Notes under the pieces: generated by a model
Told to the model about the DNA's origin: nothing
Database searches by the model: none
The model's input: only the letters and a program-made list of their open reading frames with translations
Translations under genes and position numbers: made by a program
Shown: in pieces, positions 5,572-23,784 of the stretch
Position numbering within the stretch: position 1 is the first letter of the stretch
How the letters are laid out: the number at the start of each line of letters is the position of its first letter
DNA from: an uncultured Pseudomonadota bacterium
GTDB lineage: Bacteria > Pseudomonadota > Alphaproteobacteria > Rs-D84
NCBI GenBank assembly: GCA_949292385.1
Contig: CASEZC010000010.1
Span: 7,432-71,431, forward strand
Reading direction: 5' to 3'
Length of the DNA stretch: 64,000 bases

Positions 5572-7197
5572 TCATTCAAATAGCAACGGCAGTATACTAT
5601 CAAGAATTTTTCCCGCAGTAGGAACGGCATTCCATGCAGCTGTTCTAAGACCAAAAGACTCTTTCGTTCCCTTTGGTTCATCTAAAATAACAAGTATTGT
5701 ATACTGTGGTGCGGCAACTGGGAAGATACCCGCAAACGCCGTTAAATTTTTTCTGTGGTCAACTCGTCCATTTACATATTTCTCTGCAGTTGCAGTTTTT
5801 CCACCGATTTGTATACCTGCGATTCGAGCCTTTTTACCGCTGGTTTCTTCAGCAATTCTTAACATAACACCACGCAAACGTTCTGAAATCTCATCTGACA
5901 GAACACGTTCACCGCGTACAACGCCGACGTTACGTTTTTGTATTGTAGGATATATATATATTCCGCCATTAGTCATAGAATTCACTGCCAATAACAGATG
6001 CATAGGAGTAACAGATATACCATGTCCGAAAGATACAGTAGCTCTCTCAACAGGTCCCCATTTAATCGGCATAAGTGGCTTTTCTGTTTTACCAAAATCT
6101 AATTTTAACGATTCGTCTAAATGTATTCTGTGAAAGAACTCTTGCTGCGTACCATCAGGTAAATCTAATGCAATCTGTGCACTTCCAGCATTACATGAAT
6201 GCAACATAATTTCTTCAACAGTAAGATTAGGACGCGGTGGTTTAAAGCTGCTAACGTCACCTATTCTTGCAGCAGTTCTTCCAAACTTGTCAGGTATTTT
6301 AAAAGCTTCAGCTATATAATATTCTTTATTTATACCATTTTCCATAGCCATGGCAGTATTAAATACTTTAAATATAGACCCCATTTCAAACACACCGCGT
6401 AACGGCTTAAACAAACGATTCGACGCAGGATCCAGGCTTAGATTTTCTGGATCAAAATCTGGCAAAGAAACCATAGCAATCATTTCACCGGTTCTTGAAT
6501 TCATCAATAAACCCATGGCAGATTTTGCTTGGTATTTCTGCATAGCAAAAGATAACTGCTCATAAAACACAGACTGTATTCTTGCATCTAACGACAACTG
6601 CAACGGATCTCTGTTTTCTGTAAGATAATCATCATAAATACGCTCTACCCCTTCCAAACCGTGTCCATCATTTCCAACGAACCCGACAATATGAGAAAAT
6701 AATCTACGCTTTGGATATCTTCTTGTCTGCACAGGTTCAATTTCTAACCCCTGCAGTTTTGCTTTTGTAACAATTTCACGTTGTGCATCACTTGCATACT
6801 TCTTTATGTATATAAACTTTCTAGAAGAATTAACCAATTTCAACGCGTCATTCAAAGAATATTGATAAGGCAACGCTTGATGTATTACAGCCGCGACTTT
6901 ATCTCTGTCCTTTACATAAGGAGGTCTTAAAGTTATATGCCCAGACATAACATTTTTAGCCAAGATATCACCATTTCTATCAATAATATCCGCACGTTGC
7001 GCAGTCCAAGCACCATCTGCACCTGCCAACCTAGACCTGTCTGTTCCTTGTATACCCAACCACAAGGTTCTAACTATAAAAATAAGGAAAGCAATAACGA
7101 ACAAAGAATAAACAAAGCGCAATCTACGACGTGCAGAAACATCTGCAACTACGCCATTAAAACCATGTTTAAAAATATCCTTTCCTACTTCAAACAT
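5572..7197 (-). CDS. ftsI: Peptidoglycan D,D-transpeptidase, class B PBP (FtsI-like)
   Basis: N-terminal TM, PBP dimerisation and transpeptidase domains (SIFK, KTAT motifs). Sits directly downstream of an ftsL-like gene. Confidence 0.8.
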   Translation of the reverse strand: MFEVGKDIFKHGFNGVVADVSARRRLRFVYSLFVIAFLIFIVRTLWLGIQGTDRSRLAGADGAWTAQRADIIDRNGDILAKNVMSGHITLRPPYVKDRDKVAAVIHQALPYQYSLNDALKLVNSSRKFIYIKKYASDAQREIVTKAKLQGLEIEPVQTRRYPKRRLFSHIVGFVGNDGHGLEGVERIYDDYLTENRDPLQLSLDARIQSVFYEQLSFAMQKYQAKSAMGLLMNSRTGEMIAMVSLPDFDPENLSLDPASNRLFKPLRGVFEMGSIFKVFNTAMAMENGINKEYYIAEAFKIPDKFGRTAARIGDVSSFKPPRPNLTVEEIMLHSCNAGSAQIALDLPDGTQQEFFHRIHLDESLKLDFGKTEKPLMPIKWGPVERATVSFGHGISVTPMHLLLAVNSMTNGGIYIYPTIQKRNVGVVRGERVLSDEISERLRGVMLRIAEETSGKKARIAGIQIGGKTATAEKYVNGRVDHRKNLTAFAGIFPVAAPQYTILVILDEPKGTKESFGLRTAAWNAVPTAGKILDSILPLLFE

Positions 7198-19189: not shown

Positions 19190-19618
19190 ATGACCCAAGA
19201 AGAATTCTTACTTGAAATGAAAAAAAACGGTGCAACTTTTGCCCCTGCTTCATCTGGTCAATCAATAAATTTAGCAAACACCAAATTGCAACAAAATCAA
19301 TCTGCAATGCTGCCTGAATTTATGATAAATTTATATCAAAAAACAGGCGGAATAAATCTTGGTAACGGTTATATATTTGGTCCAAGCGAATTTTCTGTAG
19401 ACGGTAAATTCCCTGTTCCAGATTTATTAAAAGTAAACAAAGATTTTAATAAAAACATGCGTGGAAAAACGATATTCGGTCGCAACGATTTATTCTTTTT
19501 TGCGTTTGATTGCTTTGGCACATGTTTTATGCTGAACAATCTGACATTAAACCCATTAAAAAAGTATGATGATTGTTACAGAGCATTAACAGATTGTTTA
19601 ATTGCAGGAAAAAACTAA
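19190..19618 (+). CDS. SUKH-1 / SMI1-KNR4-like protein (immunity-protein-type fold)
   Basis: INLANTKLQQNQSAMLPEFMINLYQKTGG matches the SMI1/KNR4 consensus (I.e.e.kLg..LPedykefl.kyNGG); distal aromatic/Asp motif (RNDLFFFAFDCFGTCFMLN). Confidence 0.5.
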   Translation: MTQEEFLLEMKKNGATFAPASSGQSINLANTKLQQNQSAMLPEFMINLYQKTGGINLGNGYIFGPSEFSVDGKFPVPDLLKVNKDFNKNMRGKTIFGRNDLFFFAFDCFGTCFMLNNLTLNPLKKYDDCYRALTDCLIAGKN

Positions 19619-19620
19619 AC

Positions 19621-19839
19621 ATGAAAAAACTATCAGTATCTTTATCTGGCCATCAAACAAGTATATCATTAGAAAAAGAATTCATAGATTGCCTGCATGA
19701 ACTTGCGAACGAAAAGAAATGTTCTGTTGCATCAATAATATCAGAAATAGATTCTGCACGTAACCCAGACACAAATTTATCATCTGCAATACGTATATGG
19801 ATTTTAAAAGAAATACAAAATAAAAAAACCGCTATATAG
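19621..19839 (+). CDS. Small ribbon-helix-helix DNA-binding protein (alphaproteobacterial RHH_4-like family)
   Basis: MKKLSVSLSGHQTSISLEKEFIDCLHELANEKKCSVASIISEIDSARNPDTNLSSAIRIWILKEI matches the conserved S.SLSGH.TSISLE..F...L...A...G.S...LI..ID..R...NLSSA.R pattern. AGGA Shine-Dalgarno upstream; last gene of the operon. Confidence 0.6.
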   Translation: MKKLSVSLSGHQTSISLEKEFIDCLHELANEKKCSVASIISEIDSARNPDTNLSSAIRIWILKEIQNKKTAI

Positions 19840-19845
19840 CGGTTT
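19828..19845. terminator. Bidirectional rho-independent terminator (palindrome AACCGCTATATAGCGGTT)
   Basis: Perfect 18-nt palindrome flanked by an A-run (19822-19827) and TTTT (19846-19849). Lies between the RHH gene (+) stop and the ybeY-lnt (-) stop. Confidence 0.8.
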
Positions 19846-19852
19846 TCTGGTA

Positions 19853-21862
19853 TTATTTTAACTTATTAAACTTTCCCAAAGGCACACATAAAAATATAGA
19901 AAACAATAAAATTATAATCATCCACCCATCACGTCCGATAGTCCTATATACAGTATTATGCGCCCCCCAGACAAATCCATCCAAACAACCAGCCTGTCCA
20001 ACAGATAAGTAAGATATAATTTCCCCGTCAGACGAAATAAAAGCACTTATACCTGAATAATTGGCCCGCACAATCGGCATACCTGATTCTATTGCATATC
20101 TGCGAACCATATCAAGATGCTGATAAGTTCCAGGTGTATTACCAAACCAAGTATCATTAGTTATATTTATAATCATATCTGGGTTCCGCTGACTTGGAAT
20201 CAAGGAATCAGAAAAAATAATTTCATAACAAATGGCCGGTGCAAAAGCGAACGAACCTGTATTTAAATTTAAGCTCATAAGTTCCGCCCCTGCCCCCTTA
20301 GACAGTTGCCCAGGTGTCGGGATAATATCACCTAACGGTCTGTATTCGCCAAAAGGTACTAAATGCGATTTACTGTAAATCTTATTTATTTTTCCTGAAT
20401 CATCAGCAATAACCATAGAGTTAAACATCTTACCAGCAGAATAATATTGCGCCCCTATTATAACAGGTTTATTCAGGTATTCCGCAATCGGCATACTATC
20501 GCCATCTAAAACAACAAAAGGATATGATGTTTCTGGAAATACCAACAAATCAAAATCACCTGGTGCAGATGCAAGTTCAACCAAGTTTCTTATATTAATT
20601 TCAGCATTTCTCAAAGCCTCTTGTCTTGAATGAGTAGCTTTCTGTACGGCGCTTTCTGCCGGCTGCACGATACGAATAACATAATTATTATCTGATTGTA
20701 AATGCGCAGCTTGGATATTTTTATAACCAACAAACGCACCCAAAGCAAATAAGAAACAGAAGATAAAGAACACCGCCCAAGAAAGTTTTGACTTATAATT
20801 AGTCAGCAATTCTACGACGGCCGCCACTAATCCTATTGTTATAAAAGAAAGCCCCAATGCCCCCCACAACGACATAGAATTTGCAATTACTGGAAACGGC
20901 ATAAAAATATTAGCCACAGGGTTCCAAGGGAATCCCGTCAAAAACCATTCTCTCAACCACAAAACAAACGTCCAAAACGAAGCAAATAAAATCGGTCTAC
21001 ATGGCGGAAACGTGCACATACGTGAAATTAACACAAAAGGAATTGCGAATATAACCCCACCTAAAATTCCTATACCAAACAGTGCTGGAACAGTCCATAT
21101 TGCAAACTCAGCTGCAAGTTCTGGAACCACATATATAGAGTTTAAGACCCACCAAAACATCGCCATTGAATACGCAACACTAAAAGGCAAAATTCTTAAA
21201 AAAGATTTTATCCAACTTACCTTATTAGCACGCACAACAAATTTATAAGCAGCAGCAACAGCTATTAATGTTGCCCACCACATATTAAAAGGCGCAAATC
21301 CCAAAGAAGCTACAGCACCTAAAGCGAACAAAATAATATTTTGAAAAAGTCCATCTTCTTTTATTTTTATCTTTTTAAAAAATGATAAAAACTTACTTCC
21401 AGGACAACAAGAAGAATCGCTGCATATAGGCAAATCCGGCATATATGGATTTTTTATACCAAGTTTTTTTAATATTTTTATTTCTGTTTTTTCCATTACT
21501 TCTGCTTCGTCATCTTTTATATGATCATAACCTAATAGATGTAATATCCCATGAACAACCATATGTGCAGTATGTTCTTCAACAGAAATATTTAAATCTT
21601 TTGCTTCACGTTTTACTGTATCCAAAGAAATAAAAATATCACCCAACAAAATATCATCTTGCAATTCAAACGATAATACATTCGTAGCTTTATCAATACT
21701 ACGATAATCTTTATTCAGCTTATGAATTTCTTTATCATCAATTAACGTTATAGAAACTTCAGAGTTTTTATAATTCCTACCAACAACTGCATTTGCAATT
21801 TTTTCAAAATCAATTTTATACTTCTTCCAACGAGAATCTTGATAATTAATATAAACTTTCAT
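19853..21862 (-). CDS. ybeY-lnt: In-frame fusion (or same-frame overlap) of endoribonuclease YbeY (N-terminal, about 140 aa) with apolipoprotein N-acyltransferase Lnt (C-terminal, about 528 aa)
   Basis: Residues 1-140 carry the YbeY H..HG.LHL.GYDH motif (HMVVHGILHLLGYDH). From Met141 (coords 21442-21440, MPDLPI...) onward it is a multi-TM Lnt with a CN-hydrolase domain (E...K...C catalytic region, AICYEIIF). No stop codon separates the two parts. Confidence 0.75.
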   Translation of the reverse strand: MKVYINYQDSRWKKYKIDFEKIANAVVGRNYKNSEVSITLIDDKEIHKLNKDYRSIDKATNVLSFELQDDILLGDIFISLDTVKREAKDLNISVEEHTAHMVVHGILHLLGYDHIKDDEAEVMEKTEIKILKKLGIKNPYMPDLPICSDSSCCPGSKFLSFFKKIKIKEDGLFQNIILFALGAVASLGFAPFNMWWATLIAVAAAYKFVVRANKVSWIKSFLRILPFSVAYSMAMFWWVLNSIYVVPELAAEFAIWTVPALFGIGILGGVIFAIPFVLISRMCTFPPCRPILFASFWTFVLWLREWFLTGFPWNPVANIFMPFPVIANSMSLWGALGLSFITIGLVAAVVELLTNYKSKLSWAVFFIFCFLFALGAFVGYKNIQAAHLQSDNNYVIRIVQPAESAVQKATHSRQEALRNAEINIRNLVELASAPGDFDLLVFPETSYPFVVLDGDSMPIAEYLNKPVIIGAQYYSAGKMFNSMVIADDSGKINKIYSKSHLVPFGEYRPLGDIIPTPGQLSKGAGAELMSLNLNTGSFAFAPAICYEIIFSDSLIPSQRNPDMIINITNDTWFGNTPGTYQHLDMVRRYAIESGMPIVRANYSGISAFISSDGEIISYLSVGQAGCLDGFVWGAHNTVYRTIGRDGWMIIILLFSIFLCVPLGKFNKLK

Positions 21863-21873
21863 TTTTTATTTTC

Positions 21874-23784
21874 CTATATATCTTTAACGTTGTTCTTTAA
21901 CAAATTAACGATATCTTTTTCATTAGATTTTTTATTAACAATTTCCATTGCATCACTAAAAGACAAAGTTTTAGATTTCATTTTTTCTTTAAGTCTTTCT
22001 ACATCTTTTTTTACATTAAGATTTCCATTTGCAACAGACAATTCATAATTCTTTAAAGCCTTTTCCAAATCTCCGATTTGTTCGTATGCAAAACCAGCAT
22101 TATACTGAGCAGCCGCATACTGGCTTTTATCGCCAATTCTATGAAGAATTTCTTTAGCTTGATTTATAGCCTCTTGATACATACCAAGTTTATTATAAGT
22201 TGCAGCCAAGTCATTATATAATAACGCATTGTCTTTATGAACAGATATAAGTTCTTTATACTTGATTTCTGCCTTTTTATAATCTCCACTTTTATAACAA
22301 TTTAAAGCCTCTTCATATGCATCGGCATATTCTAGGGTGTAAGTACTTTTTTCTATTTTTTCTTGTTTTTTTGTTTGTCTGACTAAAGCTTTACCACTAA
22401 ACTCGCATTCCCCCATTTCACAATATGCCAAAACATCGGCTGGCAAATAATCTTTAACACATTTCCAATGTTTTATAGGACGACCATTCTTATCAATAGG
22501 ATTATTCAGCCACATTTTAAATTTTGCATAAGTATCCTTGTTAACTTTTCTATCACCGGATTTTCCAGTAAAGAAAGCTTCTTCTTTCTGTCCCATATAG
22601 CAAAAGAATTCATACATTCCATTTACCGGACAATTTAATAACATATCTGGTGTTATATCACCAGACAGCACTCCTGCCTCTAGCCAACGGCGCCAATATA
22701 GCCCCTTGCCACCGGCCAAGAAACCACCCAACTTATCCGACACGTCTGATTTTTTATCATACCCGAGCCACACCTTACCAAAACTAGTTGGCTTAACTAT
22801 CGGATATTTTTGAAACAACTTTATTACTAAATCATCAGGTACTGCATATCCATATTCTTTGTATATCCTTCTTAATTCAGTGAAACGATTCTTGACGTTT
22901 TTATCTTGTTTATTTTCTATCAATTTAGAATATGAATTATATATAATAGACCCCATTCCCAGGGCTTCTTTAGTATCATTCACATCTACATAATCACTTG
23001 CAACATCATAACAATATAAAACGAAATAAGTTTCACCCTCCTCTAAATGCCAACGTGCCAACTCATAGGCTTCTTCCGTAGTGATAGGTTTTGTTTTCAT
23101 AGTTACCCTTGAACCATCTTTTAGCATGGTAGAGCCAAAACCTATTGTAGGAATCCCCTTTGAATCAAGATAAGGTACATGCAGCCCAGTTTCAGGGTCC
23201 ACTTTAACGCCCTCTTTTGCAATTAAATCAGCAATAAGATAAGGTGTTATAGGACGCATTTTTTTCAAGAATTCCGCATATGTACCCTTTATTCGTTTAT
23301 TTTCTTCTCTGTCTTTTCGCCACTCTTTATAAGCATCTACTGCCAAAGGCCCTTTTTCAACGGCTGCCTTTCCTCCAAACCCTAAAACCCCTAACAGCAT
23401 ATACCACGATACATACGCAGATAAATTAGGATTACTTTTAGAAAAGCGTCTTAAAGTCTGAGATTGAAATTTTTTCTTTTCGTTTAAATTTATTTTCTTA
23501 TTTTTTTCTTCAAGCTTTCTTAAAAAGACATTATCCAAAGCCAACCATCTGGCCATAGTTAGTAAAAACTGCGCACCGCCAGCAGTCAACCAAGCTGCCC
23601 CTTTTGCAGTTTCCAAACCTACCAACATTGCTGAATCTTTATAAGCAGCATATTTTTCGTCATCGCCCTTTTTCTGTCGTCTTTTTTTTACAAAATCTCG
23701 CGGGCTTTGCTTTTCTATAAGTTTACGTAATTTTTCTGCAAGTTGTTCAGGTTTAGCAACAGCCTTTCTAAAAGAATCTTTCAT
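21874..23784 (-). CDS. Membrane-anchored GH24 (T4-lysozyme-like) muramidase with a C-terminal TPR-repeat region
   Basis: 636 aa. Charged N-terminal segment of about 110 aa, one TM (YVSWYMLLGVLGFGG), then PETGLHVPYLDSKGIPTIGFGST, which aligns residue-for-residue with the T4 lysozyme E11-x8-D20-x5-T26 catalytic region ([21 protein letters not shown]). Cys-containing middle region; at least 3 TPR repeats near the C-terminus (YNKLGMYQEAINQAKEIL, AQYNAGFAYEQIGDLEKALKNYELS). AAGGA Shine-Dalgarno 8 nt upstream. Confidence 0.6.
   Translation of the reverse strand: MKDSFRKAVAKPEQLAEKLRKLIEKQSPRDFVKKRRQKKGDDEKYAAYKDSAMLVGLETAKGAAWLTAGGAQFLLTMARWLALDNVFLRKLEEKNKKINLNEKKKFQSQTLRRFSKSNPNLSAYVSWYMLLGVLGFGGKAAVEKGPLAVDAYKEWRKDREENKRIKGTYAEFLKKMRPITPYLIADLIAKEGVKVDPETGLHVPYLDSKGIPTIGFGSTMLKDGSRVTMKTKPITTEEAYELARWHLEEGETYFVLYCYDVASDYVDVNDTKEALGMGSIIYNSYSKLIENKQDKNVKNRFTELRRIYKEYGYAVPDDLVIKLFQKYPIVKPTSFGKVWLGYDKKSDVSDKLGGFLAGGKGLYWRRWLEAGVLSGDITPDMLLNCPVNGMYEFFCYMGQKEEAFFTGKSGDRKVNKDTYAKFKMWLNNPIDKNGRPIKHWKCVKDYLPADVLAYCEMGECEFSGKALVRQTKKQEKIEKSTYTLEYADAYEEALNCYKSGDYKKAEIKYKELISVHKDNALLYNDLAATYNKLGMYQEAINQAKEILHRIGDKSQYAAAQYNAGFAYEQIGDLEKALKNYELSVANGNLNVKKDVERLKEKMKSKTLSFSDAMEIVNKKSNEKDIVNLLKNNVKDI

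Follow-up and report, generated by a model that had tools for sequence, protein, structure and literature searches.

Does a single reading frame that encodes both the metallo-RNase YbeY and the apolipoprotein N-acyltransferase Lnt yield one protein or two? The question is raised by a 64,000-nucleotide stretch of contig CASEZC010000010.1 (assembly GCA_949292385.1) from an uncultured alphaproteobacterium of the lineage Rs-D84, which we call the window and whose positions are used throughout. On its minus strand, as an initial annotation had noted, ybeY and lnt share one 669-codon open reading frame (ORF), 19853..21862, with no stop between them. That annotation left three options: a genuine bifunctional fusion, an Lnt made from an internal in-frame start, or a sequencing error at the junction. 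Judged from sequence comparisons, ybeY::lnt is a genuine, evolutionarily fixed gene fusion. We selected the first option because the junction is conserved and no conserved internal start exists, and the product is very probably a genuine bifunctional polypeptide, in which a cytoplasmic YbeY is anchored by the N-in first transmembrane helix (TM1) of Lnt and the two are obligatorily co-expressed in equimolar amounts. The features on which the argument turns are the following.

19853..21862, minus strand: the whole ybeY::lnt fused ORF, 669 codons with an ATG start and a TAA stop, from the ORF listing and the strand read-out.
21443..21862, minus strand: the YbeY domain, amino acids (aa) 1-140, up to its natural C-terminus ...KNPY, from Pfam, NCBIfam and the alignment to 1XM5.
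21350..21442, minus strand: the linker, aa 141-171, made up of six variable residues, the Cys motif and, just before TM1, an amphipathic helix rich in Lys (KFLSFFKKIKIK).
21440..21442, minus strand: an in-frame ATG (M141), lineage-specific and not a conserved start, as judged from homologous residues, the codon in the related locus L082 and a check for Shine-Dalgarno (SD)-like motifs.
21398..21424, minus strand: the Cys-rich motif CSDSSCCPG (aa 147-155), with the consensus C-x-D-x-x-C-C-P-G, kept by most of the Enterousia-like subclade.
19856..21349, minus strand: the Lnt part, aa 172-669, with TM1-TM7 predicted at aa 172-386, the periplasmic CN-hydrolase domain at ~387-643 and TM8 predicted at 644-668.
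21872..21875, minus strand: an SD-like AGGA that lies 9 nt ahead of the start codon (ATG, 21862) and overlaps the TAG (21874-21876) ending the upstream 636-aa gene, from the strand read-out.
19823..19848, minus strand: an intrinsic-terminator-like hairpin and T-run directly after the ybeY::lnt stop, with an 11-bp stem containing 4 GC pairs, then TATTTTGTAT.

No internal stop codon was found anywhere in this ORF. Along the strand, the YbeY metal-site motif HGILHLLGYDH occupies aa 104-114, the YbeY C-terminus ...LGIKNPY ends at aa 140, and the ATG of MPDLPI (21442-21440) is codon 141. Pfam matches YbeY (PF02130, UPF0054) at aa 14-134 with 128.2 bits (cut-off 25) over profile positions 6-129 of 129, followed by LNT_N (PF20154) at aa 182-345 (66 bits) and CN_hydrolase (PF00795) at aa 460-620 (76.3 bits). 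The NCBIfam equivalogs agree, with TIGR00043 (YbeY) at aa 12-137 (136.5 against a cut-off of 45) and TIGR00546 (lnt) at aa 228-615 (228.7 against a cut-off of 132.9). When the YbeY part was compared with E. coli YbeY (1XM5) by phmmer, residues 21-152 of 155 were aligned (E=1.5e-29), and since the alignment reaches residue 152 the domain is complete to its native C-terminus. The Lnt part aligns with P. aeruginosa Lnt (5N6M) over query residues 174-632 and with E. coli Lnt (5XHQ) over query residues 176-619, from 5XHQ residue ~15, so that homology starts at TM1. About 30 residues between the two parts have no counterpart in either family. The initial statement that the YbeY motif and a complete Lnt, with eight predicted transmembrane (TM) helices and a CN-hydrolase domain, lie in the same frame was borne out by the strand read-out, the profiles and the structural model described below. 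The only SD-like element tied to the ORF is the AGGA at 21872..21875, and no terminator-like site comparable to that at 19823..19848 was found between the YbeY and Lnt halves.

Both halves retain their catalytic residues. In the alignment to 1XM5, the Zn-binding triad of YbeY (H-x3-H-x5-H; H104, H108, and H114) corresponds to H114, H118, and H124 of E. coli YbeY, and R54 aligns to the conserved E. coli R59. The nitrilase-superfamily Glu-Lys-Cys triad of Lnt, E444 (FPETSYP), K498 (YSKSHLVPFGEY), and C545 (APAICYE), was aligned to the P. aeruginosa Lnt motifs. All seven residues are invariant in a 39-sequence alignment (A1), and both triads are kept in 129 of 129 fused-length proteins, the few misses of the regular expressions being conservative variants of residues flanking the Glu. 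The ratio of nonsynonymous to synonymous substitution rates (dN/dS; Nei-Gojobori, window versus L082) is 0.15 for YbeY, 0.34 for the linker and 0.12 for Lnt, and all three parts are under purifying selection. The N-terminal 140 residues are most likely a complete and catalytically competent YbeY metallo-RNase, and the YbeY and Lnt activities are probably both exercised in the fused protein. The fused gene is presumably the cell's only YbeY.

The same architecture recurs in relatives. In a homolog search over 5.8 billion proteins, the best 120 clusters, which were examined, share 58-97% identity with the window protein, are all 650-686 aa long, and all contain PF02130, PF20154, and PF00795. Those among them that bear a name are labelled only "apolipoprotein N-acyltransferase" and come from metagenome-assembled genomes (MAGs) marked Alphaproteobacteria. 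A scan of GTDB species genomes gave 80 loci, on every ORF of which hidden Markov model (HMM) searches were run. A single fused ORF was found in the rumen and gut GenBank MAGs L001-L005 (~56-60% identity), one of which is named Candidatus Enterousia, a genus placed in Alphaproteobacteria incertae sedis, and also in L006 (a "Rickettsiales" MAG, 41% identity) and L007 (39% identity). The same junction and synteny are present in two independent assemblies, L081 (SRR29449373, 97% identity) and L082 (SRR21898927, 80% identity). When 1.84 billion representatives clustered at 50% identity were searched exhaustively with HMMER, 18,120 of them proved related to one half or the other at E<1e-10; about eight of these clusters were full-length fusions, the most distant (P0134 and P0138) at 34% identity. 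The ybeY::lnt architecture is rare overall, yet fixed in a sizeable host-associated clade. Two taxonomic labels fall outside this picture: the fused protein P0073 is labelled 'Muribaculaceae bacterium' and the related locus L008 'Lachnospiraceae bacterium'. These contigs are probably mis-binned, because they encode alphaproteobacterial-type phoH-ybeY-lnt or ybeY::lnt.

How could a cytoplasmic RNase and a polytopic membrane enzyme work as one chain? In the most likely scenario, translation would begin at one start (the ATG at 21862, with AGGA upstream) and give one 669-aa polypeptide, whose N-terminal 140 residues would fold in the cytoplasm as the YbeY metallo-RNase. The flexible linker, ~30 aa long, would end in the Lys-rich amphipathic helix, TM1 of Lnt would insert N-in, and the other seven helices and the periplasmic CN-hydrolase domain would form a normal apolipoprotein N-acyltransferase. 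YbeY would then be made 1:1 with Lnt and held by its tether on the cytoplasmic side of the inner membrane, where its role in 16S rRNA and 30S maturation would have to be carried out.

An AlphaFold2 (AF2) model built on alignment A1 (mean predicted local distance difference test, pLDDT, 79.5) is consistent with this arrangement. It shows a confident α/β YbeY domain, a β-rich CN-hydrolase domain and the overall Lnt fold, with seven TM helices at aa 172-386 and an eighth at 644-668. Confidence in the linker is low at aa 143-170 (pLDDT ~46-56), where one short helix is predicted at 156-164 (the Lys-rich amphipathic KFLSFFKKI). In the solved Lnt structures (5N6H, 5XHQ, and 5VRG), both termini are cytoplasmic. 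Homology to these structures and the Lys-rich segment before TM1 point to an N-in orientation of Lnt in the fusion as well; the lysine cluster fits the positive-inside rule and would thus hold the N-terminal side in the cytoplasm. The fusion therefore appears topologically permissive, with YbeY remaining in the cytoplasm with its RNA and ribosome substrates, yet tethered to the membrane.

The linker that would form this tether varies in length and in composition. Its length among the fused homologs takes 17 values from 6 to 40 aa, all in frame. At least one Cys is present in the linkers of 118 of the 124 fused homologs, and exactly three in 76 of them. The Cys motif takes the variant form CACGCG...CPG in P0061 and P0073, and in L001, a sheep-rumen MAG, it has grown (~6420-6510) to a metallothionein-like run, ADECNCGCGGKCNCVDCKCKNCSCCNCPG, with 14 Cys. 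It is absent in the distant fused forms, whose linkers measure 6-22 aa, and in unfused relatives; in P0122, P0126, and P0129, only 6-11 residues separate ...NPY from TM1. The motif may be a cytoplasmic metal site beside the membrane. A role of these residues as a lipobox cysteine was rejected, since the position before the Cys holds V, I or T, where a lipobox would have G, A or S, no signal peptide is present (the N-terminus, MKVYINYQDSRWKKYK, is hydrophilic), and the segment is predicted to lie on the cytoplasmic side.

Alternatively, the protein might be translated as one precursor and then cleaved in the linker by a protease, giving a soluble YbeY and a normal Lnt, so that the fusion would only couple their expression and leave the location of YbeY unaffected. 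The predicted disorder of the linker (pLDDT ~46-56) and its greater variability than that of either domain (dN/dS 0.34) would suit such processing, and the conserved CCPG core could in principle be a recognition element. However, the 6-11-residue linkers of P0122, P0126, and P0129 leave little room for a cleavage site and have no sequence motif in common with the linker of the window. We also know of no protease site for such a linker sequence, which likewise counts against cleavage. Furthermore, the precedent of a fused Lnt and Ppm synthase, Rv2051c, has been described as a two-domain protein (PMC3850990). On this balance we regard cleavage as quite unlikely, and favour a fusion protein that stays in one piece.

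The second rival concerns translation. In this strain, Lnt could also or mainly be made from the internal ATG at codon 141 (21442), beside the read-through fusion. This in-frame ATG lies exactly at the domain boundary, in L081 (97% identity) as well as in the window, and the region is A-rich and could be weakly structured. However, the codon is GTA in L082 (80% identity), and the residue equivalent to M141 in the 124 fused homologs is V in 33, A in 22, T in 21, E in 19, K in 9, and M in only 7, with other residues in the rest, so that Met is missing in 117 of 124; in 96 of them no Met occurs anywhere in the linker. No SD-like motif was found within 18 nt upstream of M141. Here the initial annotation reached the right conclusion, that no obvious SD sequence precedes the codon, from a misquoted stretch, giving AAAAAATTAGGTATAAAAAATCC where the sequence reads AAAAAAACTTGGTATAAAAAATCC. 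Likewise, no SD-like motif precedes any in-frame start codon of the junction in the window, L001, L004 or L005, while L002 and L003 contain one weak AAGG each, before a non-conserved in-frame codon within the YbeY C-terminal helix. Across the window and L001-L005, no in-frame ATG, GTG or TTG is conserved at the junction. M141 was thus rejected as a conserved Lnt start. Moreover, as no stop codon is present at the junction, ribosomes that start at codon 1 must read on into Lnt, and the fusion product would be made regardless of any internal initiation. It is very unlikely that internal initiation supplies Lnt in this strain, and the 669-aa polypeptide would be expected to stay intact.

That the junction is a sequencing or assembly artefact, with a missed stop or frameshift between two separate genes, is next to inconceivable, because the same in-frame junction is shared, at 34-97% identity, by L081, L082, the GenBank MAGs L001-L007 and at least 120 protein clusters from independent samples and assemblers (Logan, ENA, JGI, and NCBI), because the many linker indels all preserve the frame, and because the linker itself is under purifying selection, the sole hint in its favour being the truncated P0146, which is seemingly frameshifted after the linker. 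P0146 (219 aa, 60% identical over the YbeY part) is normal through the Cys motif, after which its sequence is no longer related; no second case of this kind was seen, and P0146 probably represents a frameshifted assembly or a pseudogene.

Gene order in relatives suggests how the fusion arose. HMMs made from the ORFs flanking ybeY in canonical loci were used, together with ORF maps, to set up a series of gene orders. The canonical phoH-ybeY-corC-lnt order is present in many Alphaproteobacteria, including L014, L017 (Rhizomicrobium), and L021, in agreement with the initial annotation, which had named ybeY-corC-lnt as the usual alphaproteobacterial order. Several gut and rumen MAGs have phoH-ybeY-lnt without corC. 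In L038, L059, and L067, which also lack corC, ybeY and lnt adjoin or overlap in another frame. In L008 (junction NPYQE*RMLVKLK) and L011 (NPYQDEE*ENFMH), ybeY and lnt share a reading frame that only a single stop codon interrupts, with phoH upstream and corC absent. These two distant loci (~31-33% identity) are the only relatives with a stop at the junction, a finding that had been named in advance as one that would speak against the fusion; we read them as the pre-fusion state, and no such stop was found inside the fused clade. One substitution in an L008-like stop codon would give a linker of the size found in the distant fused forms (6-22 aa). Searches of the 64-kb window and of ±6 kb in L001-L007 revealed neither corC, for which an HMM from the corC ORFs of canonical loci was used, nor phoH; tlyC/corC is thus absent here, as had been proposed, and relocation of either gene to a nearby position within these limits was rejected.

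These gene orders are consistent with a stepwise origin. First, corC would have been lost from between ybeY and lnt of the proteobacterial phoH-ybeY-corC-lnt operon; second, ybeY and lnt would have been brought into the same frame with one stop codon between them; and third, that stop codon would have been lost. The Cys-rich insertion would have been added to the linker later, in the Enterousia-like subclade. Long additions to the N-terminus of Lnt are also found outside the fusion. The unfused Lnt of L059 (6483-8246) has a Lys/Ala-rich, histone-H1-like cytoplasmic extension of ~70 aa (MAKSVKKETTGKTKKKAAVKKSASKK...), and that of L011 (6523-8244) has a Ser/Gly/Lys-rich one of similar length (~70 aa). 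Since both proteins carry such extensions, the N-terminus of Lnt tolerates extra sequence.

Several observations weigh against a fixed fusion that works as one bifunctional protein. This strain does carry an in-frame ATG at codon 141, where an extra Lnt-only product could start. A tether that holds YbeY 6-40 residues from the membrane might hinder its access to 30S particles. In a rough neighbour-joining tree of Lnt domains, the fused forms cluster, but the unfused Lnt proteins P0136, P0137, and P0139-P0141 fall among them, and no ybeY adjoins lnt in P0136 and P0137, the two contexts examined. Therefore, the fusion would either be reversible, through fission and relocation, or have arisen more than once, and it would not be indispensable. 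Strict monophyly of the fusion is thus unsupported by this tree.

The bifunctional fusion, which we still prefer, can be set beside known systems. The canonical order, ybeZ(phoH)-ybeY-ybeX(corC)-lnt, is that of E. coli and most Proteobacteria, and in E. coli lnt is predicted to be under sigma-E and ybeZYX under sigma-32 (bioRxiv 10.1101/2023.03.20.533420). Compared with this operon, ybeY and lnt keep the same order and orientation in the window, whereas corC, phoH, and the ybeY stop codon are missing, so that two proteins become one. In contrast to the sigma-E/sigma-32 split of E. coli, expression of ybeY and lnt in the window would be obligatorily coupled.

Fusions of YbeY to Era have been found in Clostridia, Selenomonadales, and Thermoleophilum, and were read as a Rosetta-stone sign of functional coupling (PMC10582724). 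As in YbeY-Era, YbeY is N-terminal in the window protein and is joined to the product of a syntenic neighbour gene. Era is a soluble GTPase of 30S assembly and a physical binding partner of YbeY; Lnt, by contrast, is a polytopic enzyme of the inner membrane that acts in lipoprotein maturation and, to our knowledge, has no link to the ribosome. The YbeY-Lnt fusion would also differ from YbeY-Era in that it changes the place of YbeY in the cell.

In M. tuberculosis, Lnt is fused to Ppm synthase in Rv2051c, the genes being separate and adjacent in M. smegmatis (MSMEG_3860/3859), and both activities are kept (PMC3850990). As in Rv2051c, Lnt of the window is joined to a cytoplasmic enzyme encoded by an operon neighbour and would in effect be a membrane anchor. 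However, the partner in Rv2051c sits on the C-terminus of Lnt and acts in envelope glycolipid synthesis, a related pathway, whereas that in the window sits on the N-terminus and is a ribosome-biogenesis RNase. No description of a YbeY-Lnt fusion was found in full-text searches of the literature, although a mention in the 2021 YbeY review by Liao et al. (doi 10.1042/BST20200669) is possible. The fused proteins themselves are already in public databases, named only as Lnt, and YbeY-Era and Lnt-Ppm are the precedents of their kind.

The genes around the fusion deserve a brief description. The upstream 636-aa gene (21874-23784, minus strand) stops 11 nt short of the fused ORF, with its TAG codon overlapping the SD-like AGGA. 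Its product shows weak matches to phage lysozyme (aa 203-252) and tetratricopeptide repeats (TPR; aa 498-584). The slot that it fills, between mucR and ybeY::lnt, is variable: the window, L081, and L082 have the gene, L002 has a weak partial match, and L001 and L003-L005 lack it. A role of this TPR/phage-lysozyme-like gene as a conserved operon partner was rejected, as mucR in L004 and mgsA in L003 directly abut the fused gene. On the other side, a convergent RHH_4 (ribbon-helix-helix) gene (19573-19839, plus strand) ends 14 nt from the ybeY::lnt stop. The terminator-like hairpin at 19823..19848 sits within the 3' end of this gene and is sufficiently palindromic that it could act on both strands. 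Taken from stop to stop, the RHH_4 ORF overlaps the preceding 142-aa ORF (19190-19618). The downstream block of RHH_4 and ORFs of 142, 169, 308, and 224 aa is syntenic across the subclade, and apart from RHH_4 has no Pfam matches. In the lineage of the unfused P0136, a Cas9 gene (HNH_4 and Cas9_RuvC) lies ~2 kb downstream of lnt (L083, 5195-7080; L084, 5106-6991), and its product of 990 aa runs past the end of the locus.

Few bacterial proteins are as conserved as YbeY, and how exactly it acts is still under debate. The synteny of ybeY with membrane and metal-homeostasis genes has been called enigmatic (PMC10582724). In this respect, a clade whose YbeY is joined covalently to a polytopic enzyme of the inner membrane offers a natural experiment: YbeY is presumably able to function while tethered 6-40 residues from the membrane, and by the Rosetta-stone argument the fusion speaks for a link between ybeY and lnt in function or in space. 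As the fused proteins are named only as Lnt, inventories based on names would report ybeY missing from these genomes. A bolder proposal, which we hold to be unlikely, is that the fused gene, as the sole ybeY, places late 30S maturation and quality control at the inner membrane and couples it to lipoprotein maturation, with the Cys-rich linker (CxDxxCCPG) binding metal and modulating the Zn-dependent RNase. The Cys-rich linker might also functionally replace the lost divalent-cation protein CorC. If membrane-bound 30S maturation with a metal-binding linker were true, it would give a mechanistic meaning to the synteny of ybeY with corC, lnt, and dgkA. If the fusion is instead merely a neutral outcome of operon compaction in small gut-associated genomes, it would still be a clean and stepwise-documented case of gene fusion by stop-codon loss.

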